From the IMG/VR virus record IMGVR_UViG_3300029286_000029: a DNA stretch of 64,000 bases; one strand, given 5' to 3'. The notes beneath the pieces are model-generated. The model was not told the DNA's origin. It ran no database searches and saw nothing but the letters and a program-made list of their open reading frames with translations. Origin of the DNA: a virus. A program made the translations under genes and the position numbers. Of this stretch, positions 21,651 to 56,688 are shown piece after piece (position 1 is the stretch's first letter; every line of letters begins with the position of its first letter).

Positions 21651-23285
21651 ATGTCAACAAAAGAAAAAGAAACCCTAAAAGAATTTGATTTCAAAATAGG
21701 CGCAGATCCAGAATTTATTCTCACCATGCAGGGCAGAAAGGTCGATGCCAAACAAACCATGGAAATAATGCTTAAAAATAAGCCAGATTTAAGAAAAGTA
21801 GGAATGGGTTATGCTATTAAAGACAAAAATTGTGGTGATATAGGTTGGGACGGAGCTGATTCCACCGGTGAAATTCGTCCTAGTGCCAGCAACGATCCCA
21901 AAAAAGTAATCAACAACCTCGGAACATTGCTAAAAATATTCACCAAATACATCAAACTTTGTGATATGTCCACCATCTCTGAATATAGTTCAATTGGAGG
22001 GCATATACATCTGGAAGTTCCAAAAGGAGAGCATTGGTCAAGAGAAAAAGAAAATCTTATCCATCGTCGATTAGCTTCATTTTATCTTCCAGTCTTAATT
22101 TCCGAAAATAAAACTAATCTAAATCTGAGATTAAGACAGTCATATGGCTCAATCAAAGATCATCGGATAGAAAATAAGTTCACTTATGAAGATGGCGCAG
22201 ATGGAAAAACATTCGAATTCCGTTGTCCATCAGCTGAATGGTTAACCACCCCTAAATTAGCCGAAGCCACTCTTGCTTATATGGCAGTTGTCTATCATGA
22301 AATTCTAAAACACCCTAAGAATTTCTCAAACTTCAATGATATTGTTTATAAAAGCGACAAACAAGGCGATGCTTTACAAACTCTAGCCATCATGGAATTC
22401 GAACTATTAACTGACAACATCTTACAAAAAGCCAGAAAATATGTCCGAACCTTCGAAATGTATCCACAATACAAAAATGAAATCGAATATATCTTTAATC
22501 CAAAACAAATAATTAAAGATAAGCAAAAAGCCGATTTCAACATTGCATTAGGTTGGAAACTTCTCGATCGGCAATCAGTTCCTAAGAAATCCGAAATTCT
22601 ATCATCAAAAAAGAAAATCATGAGCATTGCTAAACAAAAAGATTTCGATATCTTAAAACAAGTCATGAATATCCACCACAATGATGATACTAATGTCGGA
22701 GTCTTCGTCGAAAATCTCAAAGATCGAGTTGCTGCTTTCAATTGGAAGCTAAAAAACAATTATTTCATCTTCGGCATAAGAAAAGGCATCAATGAAATAA
22801 TCACCAGGAATCTAAAAGGTGAATATCTAACAGGTAAAAATATAATCAAAACAGAATTAGATCATGATGCTATTAGTCGTTTATTCGATAAAATGAATAA
22901 TAAATTCAATAGCAATATCGATCGCACCTTAAGCACAACTCTAGATTTCACCACCGGCAAACCAAAGGACTTAAGAGAATCAATCATTCTAATTGGTTTA
23001 CCTTATGGAATGAGAGTCAGTGAAGAAATTAAACCATTTCTTAATCTGATTTGGTCATTAGAGAAAGGTGAAATAACCAGTAAAAATGCAATCAATAATA
23101 AAAATGAACAAAAACTAATTAATGATTGTAATCTACCAGATGAACAAAAAGGTGAAATCTATAAAATTCTAAACAGAAAAATAGAAACCAATCAACAAGA
23201 AGTAGTGATGGATAATGGATCGACAAGCCTAAGACATCATTTGAACGCCGTCGACCAAATGATCAATGAATTTCCTGCAAATTAA
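21651..23285 (+). CDS. Glutamine synthetase-like amidoligase (Amidoligase_2/GCS2-like COOH-NH2 ligase), 544 aa.
   Basis: N-terminal FKIGADPEFIL matches the G.E.E-type motif. SIGGHIHLEV matches the G.H.H motif of GCS2/amidoligase families. The gene is followed directly by a class-II GATase gene. The assignment is motif-based inference. Confidence 0.5.
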   Translation: MSTKEKETLKEFDFKIGADPEFILTMQGRKVDAKQTMEIMLKNKPDLRKVGMGYAIKDKNCGDIGWDGADSTGEIRPSASNDPKKVINNLGTLLKIFTKYIKLCDMSTISEYSSIGGHIHLEVPKGEHWSREKENLIHRRLASFYLPVLISENKTNLNLRLRQSYGSIKDHRIENKFTYEDGADGKTFEFRCPSAEWLTTPKLAEATLAYMAVVYHEILKHPKNFSNFNDIVYKSDKQGDALQTLAIMEFELLTDNILQKARKYVRTFEMYPQYKNEIEYIFNPKQIIKDKQKADFNIALGWKLLDRQSVPKKSEILSSKKKIMSIAKQKDFDILKQVMNIHHNDDTNVGVFVENLKDRVAAFNWKLKNNYFIFGIRKGINEIITRNLKGEYLTGKNIIKTELDHDAISRLFDKMNNKFNSNIDRTLSTTLDFTTGKPKDLRESIILIGLPYGMRVSEEIKPFLNLIWSLEKGEITSKNAINNKNEQKLINDCNLPDEQKGEIYKILNRKIETNQQEVVMDNGSTSLRHHLNAVDQMINEFPAN

Positions 23286-23304
23286 TAACTAACCAATAAT
23301 CCAA

Positions 23305-24675
23305 ATGTGTGGACTTCTCGCTTGTTTTAACACCAAAACCAATAACAAGGAACCAGAAGATGCCAATGATTTCATTGTTAATCAATATGAAGATCAAGTC
23401 AATCGAGGATCAAAAGGATTCGGAATTATAAGAATAGACAAAAAGCAAAATATAGAAATTGATCGCGCCACCGAACCAGTCAAATTCTTACTTGATCTCT
23501 ATATGAAAAAATCCAATATGATTATCGCACACCACAGAACACCAACTTCTACCGATAATCAAATTGATCAAACTCATCCAATGTATGTAACCAATAAGCT
23601 ATTAAAATATGATTATTTGGTAGTTCATAATGGATTAGTCACAAATGATGAAGAATTGCATAAGAAACATCTAGAATTAGGATTCGAATACAGCACAGAA
23701 TACACAATTGAAGACAAATTCCTAAAAGAAAAAGCTAAATGGAATGATTCAGAATCATTAGCCATTGAATTAGCCTTATATATCGAAAAAAGAGTCGATA
23801 AAATAGGAATTGATAATGCTGCTGCGTTCATTATCGTCCAAATCAATAAAGAAAATCTTAAAGCCCATCGCATCTTCTTTGGACGACATGAAACATACAG
23901 CTACTTAAATCTAAGTAAAAAGAAAGGTGAAATGAAAATTTCCAGCGAAGGAATAGGTGAAGAAACAGCCGTCGATAAATTATATTCCTTCGATCCTAAT
24001 GATCCAAAAATGAAATTAACAAAAATCAAAATGACATTTTTGGAAAAACCACCATATGTTAGGCCCACAACAGGACTTTATGAAAAATCAACAACAGATA
24101 TTCATCCAGCCACAACTGCCATTACACCAACAACAGAAACTACATCCCAACCGACCTTAAGACAGTGGATGGGAGAAGATAATGAACCAAAAGGTGTAGA
24201 TGAATTAGCTGGTCCTAATGATTTTATCATAGAATTCGCTGACAAAGGTTATTTAGGAAAATTAAAAACCAAATTCACAGAAAACATAAAAGATATTAAA
24301 GCCGCAGATATAACTCAAGTTCTAAATGACACATTAGAAGAAGAAACAGATACACTTAATCAAATCGTCGAAGCATACAAAGAACAAGTAATCAGTCTAG
24401 AATACTTCGATGATAAAGACAAACAAGAATATATCAACCAGATTTGTCGAATCATTAATGGCATGAAAACAATAACTGAAATAGCCAATGATGAATATCT
24501 GCAAAAAGATTATGAAGAACAAGAAGCAAAAAAAGAATTTGGTGATGAATTAGGATATGCCGGATATCATGAATCAACTGGTGGAATATATGGTGACGAT
24601 TTCAGAGAAGAAGATGCTTTCGGCATGCCACCACATAGACCTGTTGGATACAAAACCCCATATCATCTAGGATGA
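23305..24675 (+). CDS. Class-II glutamine amidotransferase (Ntn hydrolase) domain protein of 456 aa. The GATase domain is about 200 aa and the tail is acidic and low-complexity.
   Basis: The catalytic Cys follows the initiator Met (MCGLLACF). IAHHRTPTSTD resembles the Ntn R..T motif. VVHNGLVTNDEEL matches the GATase-II HNG.I.N oxyanion motif. Confidence 0.75.
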   Translation: MCGLLACFNTKTNNKEPEDANDFIVNQYEDQVNRGSKGFGIIRIDKKQNIEIDRATEPVKFLLDLYMKKSNMIIAHHRTPTSTDNQIDQTHPMYVTNKLLKYDYLVVHNGLVTNDEELHKKHLELGFEYSTEYTIEDKFLKEKAKWNDSESLAIELALYIEKRVDKIGIDNAAAFIIVQINKENLKAHRIFFGRHETYSYLNLSKKKGEMKISSEGIGEETAVDKLYSFDPNDPKMKLTKIKMTFLEKPPYVRPTTGLYEKSTTDIHPATTAITPTTETTSQPTLRQWMGEDNEPKGVDELAGPNDFIIEFADKGYLGKLKTKFTENIKDIKAADITQVLNDTLEEETDTLNQIVEAYKEQVISLEYFDDKDKQEYINQICRIINGMKTITEIANDEYLQKDYEEQEAKKEFGDELGYAGYHESTGGIYGDDFREEDAFGMPPHRPVGYKTPYHLG

Positions 24676-26601: not shown

Positions 26602-26892
26602 TTAATTATTAAGAATCAAAATCACGTCTGAAGAATTAACTAACAAATAATCTTTACCATCTAATTTTACAATAGTCCCGTAATTAAACATAATTTTATT
26701 ACCGACGGCAACTGAATTTATGATATAAGAGCCATTATCGGTCACTCTTCCCGGTCCCGCTGCCACCACCACACCTATTTTTATCTCACCAGGGTTGTCA
26801 TCAGACTTAGAAATGACTAATCCACTACCCCGAACTTCAGTCTCGTCAACACTAACCAAAACACGATCACCGAGAAGTTTTATATTGTCCAT
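26602..26892 (-). CDS. groS: Co-chaperonin GroES.
   Basis: Classic GroES sequence: IKLLGDRVLV...ETEVRGSGLVI...GEIKIGVVVAAGPGR. Length is 96 aa. Confidence 0.85.
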   Translation of the reverse strand: MDNIKLLGDRVLVSVDETEVRGSGLVISKSDDNPGEIKIGVVVAAGPGRVTDNGSYIINSVAVGNKIMFNYGTIVKLDGKDYLLVNSSDVILILNN

Positions 26893-28561: not shown

Positions 28562-30181
28562 TTACTTCACTCCGTTTGGTAGAACTTGTGGCTCATCAGC
28601 CATGGCCGTTTGCATTGTCAAAAGTATGCTACCAGCCGACACCGCATTTTCTACCGCCGAACGAGTAACCTTAACTGGATCAATTATACCAGCGTTTATC
28701 AGGTCGTCCACATACACATTTTTAAGAGCGTCATAACCCCCACCCTCCTTCATTTCTTTAACCTTTGACACCACCATCGAACCGTCTCCTAGTCCGCAAT
28801 TAATAGCGATATTCGTCAGGGGCGATTCAAGAGCCAAAGCTAGGATCTCAAAGCCGATCTTTTCATCGGAAGTCAAGTTAGAATTGGCCGTCAGAGCCTC
28901 TAGAACCCTCTTAGACGCACGAACAAGGGTCGCACCGCCTCCTGGCACTATTCCCTCTTCAATCGCCGCTTTTACGGCCGCTACCGCATCTTCAATTTTG
29001 AGTTTTAGATAACGACTTTCGGTTTCCGTGGCGGCACCGACCTTGATCACGGCAACACCACCCGACAAACGAGCAATCCTTTCCTCAATTTTCAATTTAT
29101 CATGTTTAGACTCCTGTGTTTCCACTTCTTTTTTAGCCGACGCAATCCGAGTATTAATTTCTTCTGGATAACCTTTGCCACCAACTATCGTCGTCTTTTC
29201 TCGCTTGGACACCACCCGATCAGCTGTTCCCAAGTCAGCAAATTTAACCGTCTCCAGTTTCCGACCCAATTCACTAGAAATAAAAGTGGCGCCAGTCAAA
29301 ATGGCAATATCTTCCAAGTAATCTTTCTTTCGTAAGCCAAATCCAGGTGCTTTAATACAAAGAGTCGTAAAGATTCCTCGTAATTTATTGACGATAGCGG
29401 TTTGCAACGCTTCGCCAACCACATCTTCCGAAATAATAACCAATTCTTTACCGCCATTTTGCATCACTTCTTCTATGATTCTAGCTAAATGTTCAGCCGA
29501 ACCGATTTTTAAATCCGTTACTAGAATTTTTACATTTTTGCATTCCGCTTCCAATCTTTCTGCATCCGTTACCATATAAGGCGAAATAAACCCCTTGTCA
29601 AATTCCATACCTTGGCTTACTTCGGTCGTAATACCAGTGGTAGGAGACTCTTCAATAGTAATAACGCCATCCGTACCCATTTTGGCGATAGTATCAGCAA
29701 TCAACTTACCAATCTCTTCTGATTCGGCGGAAATGGTCGCTACTTGAACAGTCTCATCGCCTTCCTTGATTGGTTTGGCTATTGACTTCAGATATTCCAT
29801 CACGACTTTGGACGCCTTTTCAATTCCATTGCGGATTCCCACAGCGTTTACACCCACCGCAATTTTCTTCATACCTTCAGCGACAATAGCCTGAGCCAAG
29901 ACGACAGAGGTTGTCGTCCCGTCTCCTGCGGCATCATTCGTTTTTTGCGCCACTTCCTTAGCAATGCCACACCCCATATTTTGTATCGGGTCTTTCAAGA
30001 CGACTTCCCGGGCAATTGTTACACCGTCGTTAGTGATTTGAGGACCGCCATATCCTTTATCGAAGACCACGTTGCGACCACCTGGTCCGATTGTTACTCT
30101 TACAGCATCACCAACTGCGTCTACACCAACTTTTAATTCCTTACGAGCTTCGTCGCCAAATTTTATGATCTTATGTGACAT
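28562..30181 (-). CDS. groL: Chaperonin GroEL (Hsp60), 539 aa.
   Basis: Unambiguous GroEL sequence: DAVRVTIGPGGRNVV, GDGTTTSVVLAQAI, equatorial, apical and intermediate domains are present, and the C-terminus reads VVSKV. Confidence 0.95.
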   Translation of the reverse strand: MSHKIIKFGDEARKELKVGVDAVGDAVRVTIGPGGRNVVFDKGYGGPQITNDGVTIAREVVLKDPIQNMGCGIAKEVAQKTNDAAGDGTTTSVVLAQAIVAEGMKKIAVGVNAVGIRNGIEKASKVVMEYLKSIAKPIKEGDETVQVATISAESEEIGKLIADTIAKMGTDGVITIEESPTTGITTEVSQGMEFDKGFISPYMVTDAERLEAECKNVKILVTDLKIGSAEHLARIIEEVMQNGGKELVIISEDVVGEALQTAIVNKLRGIFTTLCIKAPGFGLRKKDYLEDIAILTGATFISSELGRKLETVKFADLGTADRVVSKREKTTIVGGKGYPEEINTRIASAKKEVETQESKHDKLKIEERIARLSGGVAVIKVGAATETESRYLKLKIEDAVAAVKAAIEEGIVPGGGATLVRASKRVLEALTANSNLTSDEKIGFEILALALESPLTNIAINCGLGDGSMVVSKVKEMKEGGGYDALKNVYVDDLINAGIIDPVKVTRSAVENAVSAGSILLTMQTAMADEPQVLPNGVK

Positions 30182-32410: not shown

Positions 32411-32440
32411 TCCTTCCTCCTTACTTGTCAAGCATTATTT
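32411..32440 (-). promoter_or_regulatory. GCTTGACAAGT palindrome plus SD directly upstream of the HTH gene. It may be an operator or promoter.
   Basis: TTGACA (reverse complement) at 32425-32430. A TACAAT-like -10 would overlap the ATG, so operator function is equally plausible. Confidence 0.4.
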
Positions 32441-32931: not shown

Positions 32932-33384
32932 TTACTTAAATTTACCTCTTTTATCTCGTGATTGCTCTTTCGAATGTTTACTACGATGAACTCCATTATT
33001 ATCATAAATAACGAGGTTCTCAATCTTATTATTTATTTTATTACCATCATCATGGTGGACAACTTGGCTACGATTAGTAATTTCTTTTTCTTTTAATAAT
33101 CGATGTTCTGCCACCCAACCATCTTTTCTAGCCAACCAATGACCCGGACGAAAAATGTGACGATAACCTTTTACCATCCTAATGCCGCCTTTCCAACTTC
33201 CACTTTTGTCACCACTCGCTCTTTTCCAATCCTTTCTTCTATCTATCGAACTTCTTTTTAAAGAATTAAGAATAGATTGTTTATAAACACTATATTTTTC
33301 TGCAATCTGCTGAGCAGCCATCCCAGAAAGATACATTTCTGCAACCACACGATCTTGTTCTTTAGTTATTTTTGATTTAGGCAT
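32932..33384 (-). CDS. HNH endonuclease with an N-terminal HTH.
   Basis: HNH motif VVHHDDGNKINNKIENLVIY. The N-terminal region VVAEMYLSGMAAQQIAEKY is like sigma region 4 or an HTH. Confidence 0.7.
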   Translation of the reverse strand: MPKSKITKEQDRVVAEMYLSGMAAQQIAEKYSVYKQSILNSLKRSSIDRRKDWKRASGDKSGSWKGGIRMVKGYRHIFRPGHWLARKDGWVAEHRLLKEKEITNRSQVVHHDDGNKINNKIENLVIYDNNGVHRSKHSKEQSRDKRGKFK

Positions 33385-33415: not shown

Positions 33416-33937
33416 TCAAGAAGTATGAAACCAGTTATAATATATATCAGTCTCCCCGCCCTTTTTAGGCCAATCTGAGTGAATAATGTTAAGTAATAAT
33501 CCAAGTTTCTTTCGTTGCCATGCATAAATCAACCTAAAGGTACGACCATTAAAATCCTCAAAAGGATGCACATCTTCAAATTTAATGTGCATATCTTGAG
33601 TAAATTTATTAGGTTTTTTTAATGTCGCTTTACTGGGATTGTTAACTTCAAAACATATATCTTCTATACGTTTTTCAATATCTTGGATACTAAGAAATAC
33701 CTTTCTCTTCCCACCAATCCATACATCGCACTCACGCCACTTACCAGCAATACGTGGATTAATATTCCGGGCTAGTAACATATGAACAGCCAAAATCGTT
33801 CCCGGTGTAATAACTGGTTGTTTAGCAAGATAAGCCCACGCTTTATAAGCATCAGCTAATGCTTCTTTGCCATAAACCTGCTCAATGGCGTTGCTCTCTT
33901 TCAAGAACTTTAACATTTCGGGTTTGTAATAATACAT
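33416..33937 (-). CDS. Fic/Doc-family domain protein with a non-canonical motif (HPFEDFNGRTFR).
   Basis: Fic motif HPF.[DE]GNGR..R has G replaced by F. An upstream ESNAIEQV segment resembles the Fic S..IEG motif. Confidence 0.55.
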   Translation of the reverse strand: MYYYKPEMLKFLKESNAIEQVYGKEALADAYKAWAYLAKQPVITPGTILAVHMLLARNINPRIAGKWRECDVWIGGKRKVFLSIQDIEKRIEDICFEVNNPSKATLKKPNKFTQDMHIKFEDVHPFEDFNGRTFRLIYAWQRKKLGLLLNIIHSDWPKKGGETDIYYNWFHTS

Positions 33938-37399: not shown

Positions 37400-37831
37400 T
37401 TAATAACCACTCTCACACTGATCCCTCGGACTCGTATCTGGTGCATTTTGACAAGAATCCAAACACCTTGTTCTACTTTCCCCAAGTGGGGCGTTAAAAC
37501 AATTATCTCTACACGTTTGTTGTTCAGTTCTACTCGGTAAATTTGAACAATCACGTGTCCGCGACTGCTGATCCGCCGGTTGCACGGCCGACGGATCAAA
37601 CTGCTGCTTGTACCAATCAGGTACTTCCACATATTGGAGACATCCAGCTGGCAACTCAGAAATTGTATTATGACTAATTTTCGTCTTACACATTTCTTCT
37701 AAAGTACCGATTTTCCCATTTTCTTCGGCTTTTTTTCTTGCTGATGATAGAGAAGATAGAACAATAGTTGACAGAATACCAATAATCGCGATTATAACCA
37801 GGAGTTCAATTAAGGTAAATCCTTTTTTCAT
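37400..37831 (-). CDS. Type IV pilin/pseudopilin-like protein of 143 aa with a prepilin N-terminus and a Cys-rich C-terminal domain.
   Basis: MKKGFTLIELLVIIAIIGILSTIVL is the class III signal G|FTLIE followed by a hydrophobic helix (N_methyl motif). Confidence 0.6.
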   Translation of the reverse strand: MKKGFTLIELLVIIAIIGILSTIVLSSLSSARKKAEENGKIGTLEEMCKTKISHNTISELPAGCLQYVEVPDWYKQQFDPSAVQPADQQSRTRDCSNLPSRTEQQTCRDNCFNAPLGESRTRCLDSCQNAPDTSPRDQCESGY

Positions 37832-37832
37832 G

Positions 37833-38687
37833 TTATTTTAGATTCAAAAAAGGAACAGCACCTCCGGGCACCATTTGCGTAGGCAAGTGGCCATCCCAGG
37901 ATTTCACGGCTTGCAACTGAACATAATCAGCTCCACCTTGTGAATTAATCGCGGCGGCCGAAATACGGATAGCTTCAGCATCAGCCTTCGCCTTCTCAAT
38001 CGTCTGTTGAGCTTCAAACTTTACCTGTTCAAGTTTATTCTTAGCAGCCTCAGAATTTTGTACAGCCGTAACCTTGGCCTCAATCGCCGCGGAAAACGCC
38101 TTAGAAAACTCAAAGTTCGTAACAGAGAAACGTTCCATTACCGCATTCTTTTCAGTGAACTGAGTAGCGAGTAATACATTAACCTTATCAGAAAATTCCG
38201 CCCGCTTTGTTACCAATTCCTCAGCTGTATATTGAGCCGAAACCGATTTTACAATTTCCCGAATCATCGGTTCAATCACGTTGGACTGGTAATTTTCAAC
38301 TGAACTGTATTGAGAATAAATATCCTGAACTTTTTCAGCTTTGACGTGATAGTTAACCACTACGCCAATCGTCACATCCTGCAAGTCTTTAGACGCACCA
38401 AACAGATTGGTATCGGTTTGTTTCTCGTCGCCATTATCGCCACCTTTATCATAATTAATCGTCTGAGTCTTGATCGACATCGCATGGACCGCTTCAATAA
38501 ACGGCAACTTAAAATACAAACCTTGCTGGATAGTTCCCACGACTGCGCCGAAACGAGTCTTGACGCCAATTTCACCAGCCTTAATGGTTCCGATTGAACC
38601 CCACAAGAGAGAAATTACGATAATAATTCCAACCACCCACGCAACCATCGTTCCGATACCTTTAATATTTTTTATATCTTCGTCCAT
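37833..38687 (-). CDS. SPFH/band-7 (prohibitin/HflK/C-like) membrane protein, 284 aa.
   Basis: An N-terminal TM helix is followed by a band-7 core and the characteristic C-terminal helix RFSVTNFEFSKAFSAAIEAKVTAVQNSEAAKNKLEQVKFEAQQ. Confidence 0.8.
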   Translation of the reverse strand: MDEDIKNIKGIGTMVAWVVGIIIVISLLWGSIGTIKAGEIGVKTRFGAVVGTIQQGLYFKLPFIEAVHAMSIKTQTINYDKGGDNGDEKQTDTNLFGASKDLQDVTIGVVVNYHVKAEKVQDIYSQYSSVENYQSNVIEPMIREIVKSVSAQYTAEELVTKRAEFSDKVNVLLATQFTEKNAVMERFSVTNFEFSKAFSAAIEAKVTAVQNSEAAKNKLEQVKFEAQQTIEKAKADAEAIRISAAAINSQGGADYVQLQAVKSWDGHLPTQMVPGGAVPFLNLK

Positions 38688-40112: not shown

Positions 40113-40511
40113 TTATTCTTTATTGATATTGGTCGCTTCGTTAAGCATTTTTAATAATTCTTTTGGCTTAACAGCTAGAGAAGCAAACTGTTCACCAATT
40201 TCCGTTTCCTGCATCACCAATCTTCTTGAAGTCGACAAATGCAACCGGCGACGCCAATTCAGATATTTTGAACATTCTGTCAGGCTTCCAGCTATCCTAA
40301 GAGGGGTTCCTGGACCTCTTACAGGAAAAACTCGGAATCCGTCTTTTCGAAGAGAAACCAAAGCATTGTCAATTTGCTTTTGAGTTTTATGAAGAATATC
40401 TGTTAACATCATTCTCGTAACATCATTTCTCGATTCTAGAAGAATCACAATTTTACTTTTAAGTGACTGAAATTTTACACCTTTTTCTTTTATTATTTTA
40501 TTCTTTTTCAT
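40113..40511 (-). CDS. Hypothetical protein, possibly a winged helix, 132 aa.
   Basis: ORF track. Confidence 0.45.
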   Translation of the reverse strand: MKKNKIIKEKGVKFQSLKSKIVILLESRNDVTRMMLTDILHKTQKQIDNALVSLRKDGFRVFPVRGPGTPLRIAGSLTECSKYLNWRRRLHLSTSRRLVMQETEIGEQFASLAVKPKELLKMLNEATNINKE

Positions 40512-40580: not shown

Positions 40581-40608
40581 AGTATACACCCGCCTTTTTA
40601 CTTGTCAA
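40581..40608 (-). promoter_or_regulatory. Promoter TTGACA-N16-TATACT (minus strand) within GCTTGACAAGTAAAAAGG. A second half-palindrome GACAAGT is adjacent.
   Basis: -35 at 40603-40608 and -10 at 40581-40586, both reverse complement. It lies upstream of gene 40113..40511. Confidence 0.55.
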
Positions 40609-40626
40609 GCGACAAGTTGTTTAATT

Positions 40627-41817
40627 TCATTTTTTTCCATCTTTAATCCACTGTAAAGCTTTCATGTTGGCTTCAATATAACCTTCCGTGGAGTACCCGG
40701 CATCCATCCACTCTCCTTCTATTTTTCTATAAGAAAGATTTTTAGATTTAGCAAGAAAATCATTTAAATCACTTATTTCTAACTCACCTCTCTTAGATGG
40801 TTTGAAATTTTTTAAAATTTCAAATACTTTAGGTTGATAAGCATACAAACCTGTTACTGCTAAATTAGTTTTAGGTTTTTCTGGTTTTTCTGTCACTTCA
40901 ATAACTCGATCTCCTTTAATTTCCGCGATACCATAATCTTTTGGATTTTTTACTTCTTTTAAAAAAACACATCCAGCTGACCAAAAAGTTATCGGACGAT
41001 CAAATTCATTCATTTGGAAAATATTATCTCCCAAAACTACATACATTGTTCTATTCTTTACAAAATTTTCAGCCAATGATAAAGCTTCAGCAATTCCACC
41101 CGCACTATTTTGAATTTTATAAGTAAAATTCATACCAAACTCACTCCCGTCCCCTAACATCTCTATAATTCTTCCAACTCTTCCTCTGTCTAAGACAATT
41201 AAGACATCAGTTATTCGCAATGATCTCAATATTCTTATGGGATAAAAAATCATTGGAACAGCGCCTACTGGGAGTTCGTGTTTATTATGAAATGAAGTTA
41301 TTGGCGCCAAACGAGTTCCTCTACCTCCAGCAAGGATAACTCCACAAATTTTATTTTTCTGTAATATGAGTAATCGACACTCTTCAGCTCTTTTATGGCA
41401 TTGATTACAAAGAGTAATCAAATTATCAATATTATTATTTTTACTTTTCTTAAAAGGGTCCATGTGATGGACTTCTAAATTATCGACTAAACCACAATGA
41501 CGGCATCTATTTCCGTCCCTTTCTAAGGCAAGTTTCTTGTTAATTGACCAACTATTGATATTATCATTAGAATAATCTAATTTTATCTTTTCTTTATTTC
41601 TTTTTTTCTTAGGAATTCTTAAAGCTAACTTATGTTTCTCACTTTTTGGTTTCCCCTTTGATGCCTTTGAAAGATTTTCTTTCCATTCATCATTTTCACT
41701 TCTCTTTACCATAGACCTTTTTAAACCGCATAATCTACAATAAACACTTTTTTGACTTTTAATATCTTTAACCTTACGAACCCGACCACAATCCTTACAA
41801 TTTGTATTTTTACCCAT
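40627..41817 (-). CDS. Fusion protein of 396 aa: N-terminal zinc ribbons plus an HNH nuclease domain, and a C-terminal sugar-phosphate nucleotidyltransferase (RmlA/GalU-like) domain.
   Basis: HNH segment NRCRHCGLVDNLEVHHMDPF..NLITLCNQCH. Nucleotidyltransferase segment ICGVILAGGRGTRLAPIT (G-G-x-G-T-R-L) ... VVLGDNIF. Confidence 0.75.
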   Translation of the reverse strand: MGKNTNCKDCGRVRKVKDIKSQKSVYCRLCGLKRSMVKRSENDEWKENLSKASKGKPKSEKHKLALRIPKKKRNKEKIKLDYSNDNINSWSINKKLALERDGNRCRHCGLVDNLEVHHMDPFKKSKNNNIDNLITLCNQCHKRAEECRLLILQKNKICGVILAGGRGTRLAPITSFHNKHELPVGAVPMIFYPIRILRSLRITDVLIVLDRGRVGRIIEMLGDGSEFGMNFTYKIQNSAGGIAEALSLAENFVKNRTMYVVLGDNIFQMNEFDRPITFWSAGCVFLKEVKNPKDYGIAEIKGDRVIEVTEKPEKPKTNLAVTGLYAYQPKVFEILKNFKPSKRGELEISDLNDFLAKSKNLSYRKIEGEWMDAGYSTEGYIEANMKALQWIKDGKK

Positions 41818-41846: not shown

Positions 41847-41874
41847 AGTCTACACCCTACTTTTTACTTGTCAA
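41847..41874 (-). promoter_or_regulatory. Promoter TTGACA-N16-TAGACT (minus strand) within GCTTGACAAGTAAAAAGT.
   Basis: -35 at 41869-41874 and -10 at 41847-41852, both reverse complement. It lies upstream of gene 40627..41817. Confidence 0.5.
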
Positions 41875-41942
41875 GCGGTTAAATAATGACATTCTTGGTA
41901 CTCATGGTACAATAAGGATATTATTCGTTTAAATGAAATTAT

Positions 41943-46488: not shown

Positions 46489-46707
46489 ATGAACAAGAAA
46501 ATTGTTTGTCCACATGGAAAAAGAAGATATGACAAAAAAGGCGCTGTCACAATGAAGAATTTATCAATGAAGTTACACCATATTGAGATGGAAATTTATG
46601 AATGTCCTGATTGTAAATACTGGCACCTCGCCTCGGTCGGTAAGCATAAACAGTTCCGGCATAATGCTAACCGCTTGACAAGTAAAAAGGAAGGAGTATA
46701 CTGGTAA
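46489..46707 (+). CDS. Small zinc-ribbon protein, 72 aa.
   Basis: CPHGKRRY ... CPDCKYWH. Its 3' end contains the promoter for the next gene. Confidence 0.45.
   Translation: MNKKIVCPHGKRRYDKKGAVTMKNLSMKLHHIEMEIYECPDCKYWHLASVGKHKQFRHNANRLTSKKEGVYW
46675..46702 (+). promoter_or_regulatory. Promoter TTGACA-N16-TATACT within CCGCTTGACAAGTAAAAAGG.
   Basis: -35 at 46675-46680 and -10 at 46697-46702, upstream of the gene starting at 46739. Confidence 0.55.
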
Positions 46708-47910: not shown

Positions 47911-48921
47911 ATGAAAAAAACCAAAGAAGAAAATGAGGCAGTAGAAGAAGCAATGGCTTCACTTCAAAAAAAATACGGTAAAGACGTTTTAATTCAAATG
48001 GATGCAGAAATGAGCTTCAAAGTAGAGGCTATCCCGACTGGCTGTTATTCCCTGGATGAAGCCTTGGGTTGTGGCGGACTACCTCGTGGACGTATCATCG
48101 AAATCTTCGGTAAAGAGAGTTCCGGCAAAAGCACTCTTACAACTTTTTTGATGGCGCAAATTCAGAAGTCTGGTGGACGAGCAGCTCTAATTGACGCAGA
48201 AATGGCTTTTGATGGAAGTTATGCTAAAGCCATTGGTGTTGAGGTGTCTAAACTCATGGTTTCACAACCTGGATCGTTGGAAGAGGGAATGGATGTTTTA
48301 CGAGAATTAGTTAACACTAAAGCATTTGATATTATTGTGATTGATTCAGTTGCCGCACTTGTACCTAAATCTGAAATTGAAGGGGATGAGATGTTAAAAG
48401 ATTCGATGGCAGTACAGGCACGTCTCCTTGGGAAAGCATTAAGAATTTTAGCTGGGGAAATTTCAAAGTCTAACACGATTGTAATATTTGTCAACCAAAT
48501 TAGAGATAAAATAGGCGTTTTTTATGGTGCGAAGACAGTGACACCAGGTGGCCGAGCTCTAAAATTCTTTAGTTCTATCCGTATGGACGTCTCTGCTGGA
48601 GATAAAATACTCGGAAAGAATGATGAACAAATTGGCAATTCACTCAGAGTTAAAATGGCAAAGAATAAGACCGCTCCACCATGGAGGGAAGCAAATTTCG
48701 ATTTATACTACTCAAGAGGGATAGACCTTATATCAGATGCTGTGGATTATGGCGAGAAAATCGGCGCGATAAAGAAAAGTGGAAACACTTATTCCTTCGA
48801 AGGTAAGGAATTAGGGGTAGGGCGCGAGAAGGTAATCAAAGCAGTCACTAATGATGAAAAGTTATTTAACGATATTAAAGACAAGATTAATAATGTAATC
48901 AAAACTAAAGATGCAAAGTGA
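47911..48921 (+). CDS. recA: RecA-family recombinase, 336 aa.
   Basis: GLPRGRIIEIFGKESSGKSTLT (Walker A), ALIDAEMAFD, IIVIDSVAALVPKSEIEGDEM and the L1/L2 loop region are all present. Confidence 0.9.
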   Translation: MKKTKEENEAVEEAMASLQKKYGKDVLIQMDAEMSFKVEAIPTGCYSLDEALGCGGLPRGRIIEIFGKESSGKSTLTTFLMAQIQKSGGRAALIDAEMAFDGSYAKAIGVEVSKLMVSQPGSLEEGMDVLRELVNTKAFDIIVIDSVAALVPKSEIEGDEMLKDSMAVQARLLGKALRILAGEISKSNTIVIFVNQIRDKIGVFYGAKTVTPGGRALKFFSSIRMDVSAGDKILGKNDEQIGNSLRVKMAKNKTAPPWREANFDLYYSRGIDLISDAVDYGEKIGAIKKSGNTYSFEGKELGVGREKVIKAVTNDEKLFNDIKDKINNVIKTKDAK

Positions 48922-49507
48922 TGAGAAAAAGTTAATAGATAAAAAAGTTTATGGTCTGTTAATTGAAATTAATAATAAAAATTTATTCATCAGCGTTCAA
49001 ACTGCTTTTAGTTTAGAAGAAGCTTTCCAGTTGGCCGGTAAGGAGTTTCAAACTCTTAATCCACCAAGACGGACCGGAGAAGATTTATTTAAGGGTTCAA
49101 AGATTGTTCTTTTTACAATTAAAACCTTTGAAGATTTAGCTTTCTCTAATAGCATTCCCATTCTTAATATAAAAACTGAACCTAAAAACGCTAGTAAGGA
49201 AGATATCCAGGCATTAGGAAAAGAAATAGATGAAACTCTTAAGCTTATGGGGATGATGTTTGACGGGCCACGATCAATAAAGAAACCGATAATTTCTACC
49301 GGGGTAAGAATTAAAGAGCAAGAAAAAAAATTACCTTTCCCGATGCCCAGACTGGAAAAACCAGTAGAAAAAGTTCTGACAAAAGAAGAAGAAAAAAATA
49401 ATCTAATGAGGATGATTATTGCGACTAAAGATAAAAAGTTGTTCGAGCAAAACAAGAAATCGCTTTCTAGAGCAGAAAAGGCATATATTACAAAACATCT
49501 AATATAA
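48911..49507 (+). CDS. Hypothetical protein, 198 aa.
   Basis: ORF track. Confidence 0.45.
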   Translation: MQSDEKKLIDKKVYGLLIEINNKNLFISVQTAFSLEEAFQLAGKEFQTLNPPRRTGEDLFKGSKIVLFTIKTFEDLAFSNSIPILNIKTEPKNASKEDIQALGKEIDETLKLMGMMFDGPRSIKKPIISTGVRIKEQEKKLPFPMPRLEKPVEKVLTKEEEKNNLMRMIIATKDKKLFEQNKKSLSRAEKAYITKHLI

Positions 49508-49527
49508 AGTGTAAATCCGCTTTTCAC

Positions 49528-49555
49528 TTGACAAGTGATATATCGGGTATATACT
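49528..49555 (+). promoter_or_regulatory. Promoter TTGACA-N16-TATACT within GCTTTTCACTTGACAAGT. Its upstream 18 nt are identical to the reverse complement of the 28.5-kb promoter.
   Basis: -35 at 49528-49533 and -10 at 49550-49555, upstream of the gene starting at 49618. Confidence 0.55.
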
Positions 49556-49617
49556 TAAGGGATAAGGTCGATGTTATTAGAAAGTTAAGTTAATTATAAA
49601 GTTAATCAAATAAAATT

Positions 49618-50280
49618 ATGACAAATATTTTTGAAGCCGCAAAAGAAAAAATTATGCCAACTTGGATGAAGTTTATTAATGCCGGAGATAGTGTACAAGG
49701 TACCTATGTCGGCAAAATAGTCGGTCAAATTGACGGATATGGCAATGAACAAATAATCTACCAATTATTGCAGGACGACGGAACGGTTATGAATGTCGGT
49801 TTTGGTGTTAACAAGAAATTCCTTAACCAGGACATGGAATCGGTAAAGTTTGGTCAAATCATTGGATTCAAATACAAAGGAACTATTTCTGTAAAAGACA
49901 AGTTTGGTAAACCAGTTAATGTTAAAGATTTTGCTCTGCATCAAGATCCTAAAATCGTTAACGAAACATGGTTGAAAGAAAATGAAGGTAATATGCCGGA
50001 AGTAACTCGCGTGTCTAAGTCTGACGCATCAGTTAGCGCCAAAGAAGATTTTGGTGCTTTTAACAATGTTCCTAAAGAGAAAGAAGTTGACGATGTACCA
50101 TTTAGTAGCGAGGGAAGTTTGACGAATGAAGATAAACTCGCTGTCATTGAAAAACTCGCTAAAGATAAATTGGGTGTTACCGATCCATCTTTAGTTAAAG
50201 ATAAAGTCATGGAGACGCTTGGCGTAGCCTTCATCCCTGTGAACTTTTCCTCAATCATCGAGAAATTAAAGACGATGTAA
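49618..50280 (+). CDS. Hypothetical protein, 220 aa.
   Basis: ORF track. It is preceded by a family promoter. Confidence 0.5.
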   Translation: MTNIFEAAKEKIMPTWMKFINAGDSVQGTYVGKIVGQIDGYGNEQIIYQLLQDDGTVMNVGFGVNKKFLNQDMESVKFGQIIGFKYKGTISVKDKFGKPVNVKDFALHQDPKIVNETWLKENEGNMPEVTRVSKSDASVSAKEDFGAFNNVPKEKEVDDVPFSSEGSLTNEDKLAVIEKLAKDKLGVTDPSLVKDKVMETLGVAFIPVNFSSIIEKLKTM

Positions 50281-50324
50281 TTCGAGATTATTGCATATTT
50301 TCTCATAGATGCTATAATGTATCT

Positions 50325-50768
50325 ATGAGAAAATGCAATAATTGTGGTAAGGAATACGACGAAACAATAAAAGGAGCGATAAAAAAATATTGTTCCAAGA
50401 GTTGTGGCCGTCAAGATTATTATCAGAAAAATAAAGAAAGAGAAAAAATAAATTGTTCCTTGTGGTATAAGAATCATAAAGAAAGTGAAATATCTAAAAA
50501 TAAGGAATATCGTAAGGAGAAAAAGGAACTTTTCAACTGGTATCACAATAAAGATAGATTTGATGGAATGAGAGAGATTATTCTTGCAAGAGATAATAAT
50601 CAGTGCCAAAGTTGTGGGAGTAAGAAGGTCGTGATACATCATAAAGACGGATCCGGTATTAAAAAAAATAAAATATCCGGGATAAAAATTAATAACGACT
50701 TAAATAATTTGATTTGTTTATGTCATCCATGTCATATGAAACTTCACCACTGGCAAAAAAAGAAATAA
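50325..50768 (+). CDS. HNH endonuclease with an N-terminal zinc ribbon, 147 aa.
   Basis: CNNCGK..C..SC; NNQCQSCGSKKVVIHHKDG ... NLICLCHPCHMKLH. Confidence 0.7.
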   Translation: MRKCNNCGKEYDETIKGAIKKYCSKSCGRQDYYQKNKEREKINCSLWYKNHKESEISKNKEYRKEKKELFNWYHNKDRFDGMREIILARDNNQCQSCGSKKVVIHHKDGSGIKKNKISGIKINNDLNNLICLCHPCHMKLHHWQKKK

Positions 50769-56127: not shown

Positions 56128-56688
56128 ATGAAAGATGATATAAGAGATAAAGATTCTAAAGACGTTAAGATTGAAGCTGAAGTTCCAATCACTGTAGTCG
56201 AACCAGAAAAATCGGTCCTCAAGCGGTTGGTGCCGCCGCATACCAAGGTGAGTCGCGCGGTGACAGATGACGACATCGAGAAAGTGGTAGAAGAAGCGAA
56301 GATTCTTCATGCCATTTGCTTCGAGTCGATGGGAAGGTACAAAGGGGCTTATGCGATGCATCATTCTCAGATCGATGACAAAGATCCGATGAGTTTCTAC
56401 GTTACTTATGATCGGAAGATTATCATCAACCCGGTTATCACCAGGCATACGAATACCCCGGTTGACAGCAAGGAAGCGTGTATGTCCTTTCCTTATGAAG
56501 AAGAAGTTATCGTCCCGCGCTGGCATAAATTAGAAATGGATTTTGTTACTATTATGTCTGATCCAGACAATGAAGGTAAATTTAAATTATCGAGTGTTCA
56601 GCACGAGGATTTAAGCGGGCATCAGGCGTTCGTCGCTCAGCATGAAATAGATCATGGCGAGGGTCGATTTATTCATCCAATTAAATAA
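56128..56688 (+). CDS. def: Peptide deformylase, 186 aa.
   Basis: PDF motif 2 appears as EACMSFP (EGCLS) and motif 3 as AQHEIDHGEG (QHE.DHL.G). The motif-1 region GAYAMHHSQI is degenerate. Confidence 0.65.
   Translation: MKDDIRDKDSKDVKIEAEVPITVVEPEKSVLKRLVPPHTKVSRAVTDDDIEKVVEEAKILHAICFESMGRYKGAYAMHHSQIDDKDPMSFYVTYDRKIIINPVITRHTNTPVDSKEACMSFPYEEEVIVPRWHKLEMDFVTIMSDPDNEGKFKLSSVQHEDLSGHQAFVAQHEIDHGEGRFIHPIK

Follow-up and report, generated by a model that had tools for sequence, protein, structure and literature searches.

An HNH domain fused in frame to an RmlA-type sugar nucleotidylyltransferase in a clade of environmental phages

The fusion gene and its domains

The 64,000-nucleotide stretch analysed here (the window; IMG/VR virus record IMGVR_UViG_3300029286_000029) carries at 40627..41817 on the minus strand one uninterrupted open reading frame (ORF) of 1191 nt, encoding a protein of 396 amino acids in which an HNH nuclease domain precedes a short-form RmlA-type sugar-1-phosphate nucleotidylyltransferase (NTase) domain. 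The ORF starts with ATG, ends with the stop codon at 40627..40629 and contains no internal stop. A first-pass annotation, which gave no strand, had proposed an HNH domain and an RmlA-like NTase in a single ORF, and this is borne out: both Pfam domains score above their cut-offs (HNH, PF01844, residues 105-144, E 6.1e-9, 36.3 bits vs. 21.4; NTP_transferase, residues 159-388, E 4e-45, 154.8 bits vs. 21.2), and the motifs quoted for them are present at residues 107-141 (HCGLVDNLEVHHMDPF...NLITLCNQCH) and 164-174 (GGRGTRLAPIT). Among the PHROGs, the protein matches an unnamed NTase family and about twenty HNH endonuclease families, one of which spans residues 5-153 and thereby covers zinc ribbon and HNH together.

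The N-terminal module (residues 1-85, 41563..41817, minus strand, as for all parts of the gene) contains a CxxC-16-CxxC zinc ribbon and a basic helix motif, GKPKSEKHKLAL, and is presumed to be the DNA-binding part. The zinc ribbon had been named in the first-pass annotation and can be read in the sequence, while the corresponding Pfam family, Zn_Ribbon_TF, is matched below threshold only (15-19 bits vs. 29). The HNH core (residues 86-150, 41368..41562) comprises C105/C108, H117-H118, N128, N132, C137/C140 and H141. It is followed by a short linker (residues 151-158, 41344..41367), which is only 28% identical among the fusions, and by the NTase domain (residues 159-396, 40630..41343). Since none of the linker codons is ATG, GTG or TTG, the NTase can be made only as part of the fusion. 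The nuclease domain is placed at the N-terminus and not inserted within the NTase, and no intein/Hint family is found among the Pfam matches of the protein (E ≤ 1; no RNA search for a ribozyme was made). In the AlphaFold (AF2) model (mean pLDDT 71), the NTase reaches approx. 85 and the HNH core 75 to 82, while residues 1-85 remain below 55.

The fusion is genuine. The 1191-nt gene recurs with 0-1 nucleotide differences (99.9-100% identity) in four further assemblies from other samples, with the same gene neighbours and in surrounding DNA 99.8-100% identical to the window. An artefactual junction of two neighbouring genes, due to faulty sequencing or assembly or to a recent frameshift (the first-pass annotation had raised an overlooked stop or frameshift), is refuted for all practical purposes: the same ORF is seen in each of these assemblies, fusions occur in more than ten diverged lineages, a start codon is missing at the junction, and nothing was found in favour of an artefact.

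The best PDB match of the NTase domain is RmlA of Bacillus anthracis (3hl3/4ecm, E 1.9e-64), aligned with residues 159-396 from end to end; the PDB RmlA entries matched range from 1.9e-64 to 1e-36. In a Foldseek comparison, the model of the fusion protein gave a TM-score of 0.81 normalised to 4ecm at 43% identity, and the top 50 matches were all RmlA. Shared with the short-form enzyme of B. anthracis are the motifs GGxGxRL, NKH, LGDN, EKP(x)3K, GELE(I)xD and WxDAG; the window protein differs by its 158-residue N-terminal extension of zinc ribbon and HNH and by the clade-specific NTase signatures FHNKHELP and GGRGTRL. R169, K179, D264, K311 and D372 are invariant across the aligned fusions and stand-alone enzymes, so that the catalytic residues, the lack of which would have counted against the first-pass annotation, are kept. 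We take these residues to be the Arg of GxGTRL, the Lys of NKH, the Asp of LGDN, the Lys of EKP and the Asp of WxDxG, with roles as in the RmlA structures of Pseudomonas aeruginosa and Salmonella. The two RmlA models of NCBIfam, rmlA_long and rmlA, are the best matches there, both below their cut-offs (TIGR01207, 184 bits vs. 360.65; TIGR01208, 190 vs. 320.25). Their profiles are longer than the short-form domain, for which membership holds at the level of the family and not as an equivalog. The same short NTase family is naturally fused, via a short linker at its N-terminus, to RmlD-like, NRS/ER-like or RmlB-like domains in metagenomic proteins (P0125, P0132, P0133, P0268, P0207 and P0151), including larger multidomain proteins composed of short-chain dehydrogenase/reductase (SDR), NTase and glycosyltransferase. 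The N-terminus of the NTase thus tolerates additional domains.

Conservation and decay of the HNH domain

Conservation of the domains was compared by their identity instead of codon-level dN/dS, since synonymous sites are saturated at approx. 60% protein identity. Among seven close fusions, the mean pairwise identity is 66% for the HNH core and likewise 66% for the NTase, vs. 49% for the N-terminal extension and 28% for the linker. C105, C108, H118, N128, N132, C137, C140 and H141 are invariant in these proteins, while H117 varies; the invariant residues presumably comprise the catalytic histidine, the structural asparagine, the metal-binding His/Asn and the zinc-binding CxxC pairs. When the window protein is compared with a distant member with intact HNH (P0121), the HNH region (66%) is even more similar than the NTase (54%). 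This pattern of conservation suggests that the HNH domain of the window protein is probably still a nuclease.

The N-terminal extension is the most variable part among the homologs. It contains between zero and three zinc ribbons and, in P0121, a helix-turn-helix (HTH)-like segment; ribbons and HTH-like segment are matched by sub-threshold Pfam scores only. DNA-binding extensions that are swapped or lost between lineages are typical of homing endonucleases. A NUMOD3 element, suspected from the pattern GKxKSxxHKxxLS, was undetected by Pfam even at E ≤ 10 and is not claimed.

In several members of the clade (P0122, P0123, P0126, L007 and also L027-L029), the HNH region is degenerate and the catalytic histidines are gone. 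The HH pair is changed to YK, FQ, HQ or YL, and the last histidine of CxxCH to Y, N or S, unless the motif is lost as a whole. The Pfam HNH match has vanished in P0122 and P0123, while RDxxRCRHCG and NLITxC are mostly kept in the degenerate members. The variable DNA-binding extensions are kept in members with intact HNH and lost from the degenerate forms; the domain itself is retained by every member of the clade. In the degenerate pair P0123 and L007, the remnant is 62% and the NTase 61% identical, which argues for purifying selection still acting on the remnant. The degenerate branches thus show that the fold has also gained a function independent of catalysis, and such a function may exist in the window protein, too.

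Distribution and origin of the fusion

Among 5.8 billion proteins searched, seven further fusions were 58-65% identical to the window protein over both domains; the matches then fell abruptly to stand-alone NTases of approx. 235-250 amino acids and approx. 50% identity. Screening 1.84 billion cluster representatives with a profile added P0121 (HTH-like N-terminus, intact HNH), P0124 (a fragment, intact) and the degenerate P0122, P0123 and P0126. In IMG/VR, the single protein as query gave no matches and an alignment-based query gave only one HNH-only match and the 158-kb phage contig L007, which encodes a degenerate version of 329 amino acids. Altogether, fused homologs are found in at least ten further metagenomic lineages, and the fusion is conserved in one clade of environmental, largely groundwater, phages. 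None of the listed database homologs with both domains was named by its source.

No fusion was found by tblastn in 50,697 GenBank phage records, in which only unfused RmlA genes (approx. 38% identity over residues 159-392) were matched. One of these matches (H2), apparently covering part of the HNH, proved to be an ordinary unfused rml operon (rmlA, rmlC, rmlD, rmlB). Likewise, 185,579 bacterial and archaeal species, each represented by one genome, yielded no fusion when scanned for the pattern and checked by tblastn, but only unfused NTases of at most 41% identity. The first-pass annotation had suggested checking whether homologs in related phages lack the HNH part; every member of the fusion clade has it.

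In a neighbour-joining tree of the NTase domain alone, all HNH-bearing proteins form one clade (96 of 100 bootstraps), within which the degenerate forms do not group together (15 of 100). The simplest history is thus a single fusion, after which the nuclease active site was lost at least twice and probably three times. The donor family of free-standing HNH genes is not traceable in the database searched, as the N-terminal 155 amino acids used as query in a protein homology search gave no scored match and did not even recover the parent protein.

The degenerate gene on a groundwater contig (L027:8001-8894, also in L028 and L029) has TGA in frame 13 times, mostly where its relatives have glycine (e.g. 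ERD*KRC, ILAG*KGTR). The phage thus seems to read TGA as glycine (genetic code 25), which points to a host among the Gracilibacteria or Absconditabacteria.

Sugar-nucleotide genes in the window and in related phages

The only pathway partner of the NTase in the window is encoded at 13258..14025 on the plus strand. Its product (255 amino acids) has an N-terminal GxGxxG and a YxxxK motif and matches the Pfam families RmlD_sub_bind (4e-13) and Epimerase (7e-13); it remains far below the cut-off of the RmlD equivalog TIGR01214 (57.4 bits vs. 224). The best relatives of solved structure are Arabidopsis NRS/ER (4qqr, 1.5e-22) and a UDP-L-rhamnose synthase (7jid, 1.4e-14), compared to approx. 1e-6 for bacterial RmlD. 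T/S-G-C, YxxxK and a later Lys are conserved in the alignment, and these residues are presumably catalytic. The window protein is shorter than these relatives and aligned with 4qqr over residues 46-206 only. An identity of 33% was found both to the ER-like N-terminal domain of P0133, which is naturally fused to an NTase of the family described here, and to the reductase located two genes upstream of the fusion in L005, with RmlB in between. The gene, termed RmlD-like in the first-pass annotation, is thus real, but looks rather like an NRS/ER-type bifunctional NDP-4-keto-6-deoxyglucose 3,5-epimerase/4-reductase of the SDR type (ER gene), presumed to perform the last step of the pathway, than like a classical RmlD.

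A free-standing HNH gene (14029..14664, plus strand) lies 4 nt downstream of the ER gene. It matches Pfam HNH just under the cut-off (9e-4, 19.8 bits vs. 21.4) and in addition IscB-HNH, and the two genes resemble a pair of homing endonuclease and cargo. A class I S-adenosylmethionine-dependent methyltransferase (10871..11533, minus strand), 45% identical to the one directly downstream of the fusion in L001, is found close to the ER gene, where the DNA is relatively rich in GC and carries tRNAs and HNH genes. It is possibly part of a dispersed sugar module. A partnership with methyltransferases throughout the clade is not claimed, as those of L007 and L027 are only remotely similar to the window and L001 proteins. 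The GC-rich stretch from 12000 to 15700 (0.38-0.42 in 2-kb windows and 0.41-0.49 in single genes, vs. 0.36 overall) contains tRNA-Tyr, tRNA-Pro, the ER and HNH genes and two further ORFs (12303..13061, 252 amino acids, and 15127..15546, 139 amino acids); a tRNA-Trp gene (11551..11623) lies just upstream of it. It looks like a separately acquired island of nuclease and cargo.

The assignment of the fusion to a phage sugar-nucleotide pathway, as proposed by the first-pass annotation, stands on the gene clusters of one close and one distant relative, in which the fusion is located beside RmlB and reductase genes. In L005, the gene order is RecA, ER-like reductase, dTDP-glucose 4,6-dehydratase (389 bits vs. 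an equivalog cut-off of 365) and fusion. In L007, the fusion lies between a cupin and a 4,6-dehydratase (407 bits vs. 365), separated from the latter by one small ORF, alongside an RmlD-like reductase, a UDP-glucose-dehydrogenase-like gene and another SDR. The degenerate fusion of L027-L029 is part of a 13-kb cluster with five glycosyltransferases of the GT2/GT1(GT4) type, and the intact fusion of L026 lies 2 kb from a gene for a 1688-amino-acid multi-glycosyltransferase/methyltransferase protein. A tubulin/FtsZ-family gene (L007:12822-14222) directly follows the sugar-nucleotide cluster of L007.

With the relatives' proteins as tblastn queries, no RmlB, RmlD, cupin or UDP-glucose dehydrogenase was found in the window. 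Pfam scans covered essentially all window ORFs of at least 60 amino acids and the called genes up to approx. 10 kb beyond the left and approx. 5 kb beyond the right end of the window. They revealed no glycosyltransferase of any kind, for DNA or otherwise, and no dCMP/dUMP hydroxymethylase or other base-modification enzyme in the window or these flanks.

Genomic position and promoter-like elements

The gene neighbourhood of the fusion differs between the window, L001, L005 and L006. In the window, it is located in the replication module between a gene for a 132-amino-acid protein and a divergent DUF5659 gene. In L001-L004, it lies downstream of RecA between a gene for a 176-amino-acid protein and a methyltransferase gene, in L005 after RmlB and between RecA and SbcD, and in L006 upstream of Fic-MerR-SNF2.

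The window contains an empty intergenic slot of 110 bp (49508..49617) between homologs of two genes that in L001 and L005 are neighbours of the fusion or of its cluster: the gene to its left (48911..49507) corresponds to that of the 176-amino-acid protein in L001, and the gene to its right (49618..50280) to that of a 249-amino-acid protein in L005. The gene next after the latter (50325..50768, plus strand) encodes a free-standing protein of 147 amino acids with zinc ribbon and HNH, the layout of which equals residues 1-150 of the fusion. This gene lies within the RecA-SbcD interval, in which relatives carry the fusion. Its product is 39% identical to the HNH of the fusion (tblastn) and matches no Pfam family at E ≤ 0.001. 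A minus-strand ORF at 49941..50642 (233 amino acids) overlaps two plus-strand genes with homologs in related phages and was judged spurious; it is a trap for ORF callers favouring the longest frame.

A sigma-70-like promoter site (TTGACA, 16 nt, TAGACT) is found upstream of the fusion gene at 41847..41877 (minus strand) and includes the 18-mer CGCTTGACAAGTAAAAAG. A second copy of the element just downstream of the fusion gene (40581..40611, minus strand) is predicted to drive the next gene (40113..40511). With promoter-like copies on both sides, the fusion gene has the form of a promoter-flanked single-gene cassette. The 18-mer occurs exactly three times in the window (40594-40611 and 41860-41877 on the minus and 46672-46689 on the plus strand), while 0.07 copies are expected. 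It is part of an element of approx. 32 nt, of which weaker variants are present at 32417 and, within the empty slot, at 49520. Related motifs are found in the relatives L001 and L006, and in L006 the motif follows the fusion gene. The repeated element is probably the phage's own promoter consensus, and it is possible that it serves as a substrate for the shuffling of cassettes.

Gene-less alleles of the locus were sought by exact look-up of both flanking proteins. None was found, and the fusion is present at the same site in 4/4 near-identical assemblies.

Proposed origin and possible functions

The explanation we consider best, and to which we give about an even chance, is that a homing-type HNH gene was fused once to a phage rmlA gene, the product being still a nuclease that travels with its cargo in the window phage and a domesticated protein elsewhere. 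A free-standing gene of this type, encoding a DNA-binding extension and a ββα-metal finger, would have been joined in frame to the 5' end of an auxiliary rmlA-type gene. The zinc-stabilised HNH nuclease would cut related genomes without the gene, and recombinational repair would then copy the nuclease together with its physically inseparable cargo, which would lead to a different position of the gene in each related phage. The C-terminal domain would be an active nucleotidylyltransferase converting glucose-1-phosphate and dTTP or UTP to nucleoside diphosphate (NDP)-glucose. An NDP-6-deoxyhexose pathway, most likely directed toward L-rhamnose, would begin with this reaction, and a 4,6-dehydratase and the NRS/ER-type protein encoded at 13258..14025 might complete it. 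The product would most likely be used for glycan synthesis on host or virion surfaces. The homing-type origin is suggested by the layout shared with the free-standing gene at 50325..50768, the interchangeable extensions, the conserved active site, the variable location and the nuclease-rich genome. The first-pass annotation had considered a domesticated homing endonuclease; such an origin fits the architecture, and domestication is visible in the histidine-losing lineages, but the HNH of the window protein is read here as a nuclease still.

Several observations weigh against this reading. The different positions were seen in phages approx. 60% identical and could reflect ordinary rearrangement or recombination between the flanking promoter repeats. 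Three or four lineages have lost the catalytic histidines and yet keep the domain, which evolves as slowly as the enzyme; a catalytically dead domain under such constraint points to a non-nuclease function, which may be the main one in the window protein as well. A purely selfish element would usually be missing from some members of the clade, yet the domain is present in all of them, and the four near-identical assemblies show no presence/absence polymorphism, a weak negative given the small sample. The NTase remains below the RmlA equivalog cut-offs, and its specificity for dTTP and glucose-1-phosphate is thus putative. Finally, neither a 4,6-dehydratase nor a glycosyltransferase was found in the window or the flanks read, so the dehydratase would have to be a host enzyme or one encoded in phage DNA outside the sequence read.

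If the domain was instead domesticated in all members, the window protein included, the HNH fold would be an integral, non-catalytic part of the enzyme, serving as a zinc finger in folding or oligomerisation of the NTase, in regulation, or in DNA binding, for instance to autoregulate the sugar genes. We regard this second-ranked reading as rather unlikely, though much speaks for it: all members keep the domain, including those without the histidines (P0122, P0123, L007 and P0126); in two of these it escapes Pfam, yet where compared the remnant and the NTase are equally conserved; the degenerate forms still show RDxxRCRHCG and NLITxC; L007 and L027 are located in stable multi-gene sugar/glycan clusters; and the NTase family accepts N-terminal partners such as RmlD and RmlB. 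On this view, the window clade would have kept its intact catalytic residues as a relic or for a secondary role. However, the window clade and P0121 have kept every catalytic and metal-binding residue while the linker fell to 28% identity, which is unexpected for a structural finger, and the intact members retain variable DNA-binding extensions that are lost from the degenerate forms. Mobility without homing, in which a promoter-flanked cassette is moved or lost by homologous recombination between promoter repeats and the HNH is a passenger, appears improbable. It is in line with the identical 18-mers on both sides of the gene, with the third copy at 46672 and the variants at 32417 and in the empty, then ancestral, slot (49520), and with the related motif after the fusion gene of L006. 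In L001 and L005, however, the fusions lie inside operons without such repeats, and the strict conservation of the HNH active site is left unexplained.

A link between sugar chemistry and DNA, whereby the nuclease or DNA-binding domain couples NDP-sugar synthesis to DNA, seems very improbable. In its variants, the fusion would provide the donor for glycosylation of phage DNA, cut unmodified DNA of the host or of competitors while the sugar protects the phage's own DNA, or feed dTTP from degraded host DNA to the NTase. The fused partner of the NTase is indeed a DNA enzyme, and both here and in relatives the fusion is surrounded by genes for replication and recombination (ParB, DnaD-like, primase-helicase, RecA, SbcCD). 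The authors of a study on Phapecoctavirus called the presence of an rml operon in a DNA-metabolism region "peculiar" and suggested rhamnosylated hydroxymethylated bases (PMC7552041). On the other hand, the DNA hypermodification considered in the first-pass annotation is not supported: base-modification genes, among them DNA glycosyltransferases and base hydroxymethylases, went undetected in the window and approx. 15 kb of flanks, as did glycosyltransferase partners, while the glycosyltransferases accompanying the fusion in relatives are of the GT2/GT1(GT4) type, in multi-gene clusters typical of polysaccharide synthesis. Moreover, the loss of nuclease residues in several lineages does not suit a restriction-like role. 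The sugar thus probably feeds glycan synthesis and not DNA modification. Slightly more remote is the idea that the module of HNH and zinc finger binds DNA, and in some lineages cuts it, so that synthesis of the NDP-sugar would take place at the site of glycosylation of an acceptor associated with DNA or chromatin, or unglycosylated DNA would be destroyed. If true, a physical tie to DNA would explain both the rml genes in DNA-metabolism regions of many phages and the retention of the domain after the loss of catalysis.

Comparison with known systems

Phage rml genes, HNH homing endonucleases and fusions of the NTase with pathway enzymes are already known; their combination in an HNH-RmlA fusion protein was not found in the literature searched. 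Cultured Phapecoctaviruses (phAPEC8, Schickermooser) carry rmlBACD operons, and Bacillus phage G and Klebsiella phage 05F01 carry stand-alone RmlA genes. These phage-borne RmlA homologs (approx. 38% identity) are encoded near genes for DNA and nucleotide metabolism, and their biological role is unknown (PMC7552041). In contrast to the window, they are unfused, and the Phapecoctavirus operons use separate RmlC and RmlD, whereas the genes of the window are scattered, the reductase is of the NRS/ER type and RmlB was not found. The RmlD-RmlA and RmlB-RmlA fusions contain the same NTase family, joined to pathway enzymes where the partner in the window protein is a nuclease.

In "HEG islands", nuclease genes flank cargo genes of phages (PMC10448857), with mobE of T4 as another example of such nucleases (PMC2790892). 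The fusion resembles these islands in that an HNH with a variable DNA-binding extension is linked to useful cargo in a nuclease-rich phage and varies in position; the ER gene with its HNH neighbour (13258..14664) would be the classical version with adjacent nuclease and cargo. The fusion differs from the islands in that nuclease and cargo are one polypeptide, which has persisted through deep divergence, and in that homing is inferred only. In this reading, it extends the "nuclease plus cargo" islands known from other phages (PMC10448857). Among published cases, the nearest is the ShiLan insertion, an HNH read out of frame within the DNA methylase gene of an actinophage (PMC11855218). There, too, an HNH element is tied to a phage enzyme gene without intein or intron; unlike in ShiLan, the HNH of the window is an in-frame N-terminal domain translated together with the enzyme.

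Homing endonuclease genes are usually free-standing beside useful genes or hidden in introns and inteins. The clade described here would represent a third outcome, a nuclease welded to its cargo. Its intact branch with changeable DNA-binding heads and its dead-site branches under equal constraint might form a natural series for a selfish nuclease becoming part of a host protein. The clade also adds a sugar-nucleotide module, consisting of RmlA and a reductase like the plant NRS/ER, to phages, some lineages of which appear to infect ultra-small groundwater bacteria, and gives a further handle on the unexplained rhamnose-pathway genes of phage genomes.

Other features of the phage

The window encodes an SU10/P22-type portal protein, a phiEco32-type COOH-NH2 ligase, GroEL, GroES, RecA, SbcCD-like proteins, RuvC, a primase-helicase, an SNF2 helicase, ParB and four tRNAs; an SU10-type capsid gene, a peptidase_M23 gene and a LysM-containing gene are located just outside. 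The portal, ligase, replication and further genes identify the element as a phage. Homing-type nuclease genes are abundant: besides the HNH genes at 14029..14664 and 50325..50768, there are an HNH_3 gene (11609..11986) and an HNH-like ORF (32932..33384), and LAGLIDADG ORFs are found in the capsid region outside of the window. In this left flank (L021:4600-11100), LAGLIDADG ORFs and an HNH_3 ORF surround an SU10-type capsid ORF of only 221 amino acids, and several short ORFs follow one another nearby. Introns or inserted homing endonuclease genes may thus interrupt the capsid gene.

GroES is encoded at 26602-26892 (minus strand; Cpn10, 2.6e-14) and a full-length GroEL at 28562-30181 (minus strand; Cpn60, 5e-63). 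In the region 21651-24675 (plus strand), the COOH-NH2 ligase (PF14395) is followed by a protein of 456 amino acids starting with MCGLL, which resembles N-terminal-nucleophile amidotransferases by eye only; both may form a pair for the modification of peptides or metabolites. A gene at 37400-37831 (minus strand), the product of which has a type IV pilin-like N_methyl motif, adjoins that of an SPFH/Band-7 protein (37833-38687, minus strand). A peptide deformylase is encoded at 56128-56688 (plus strand) and a Fic-domain protein at 33416-33937 (minus strand). In the window, the HNH-like ORF at 32932..33384 and an ORF for 159 amino acids separate Fic from MerR, the genes of which are adjacent in L006.

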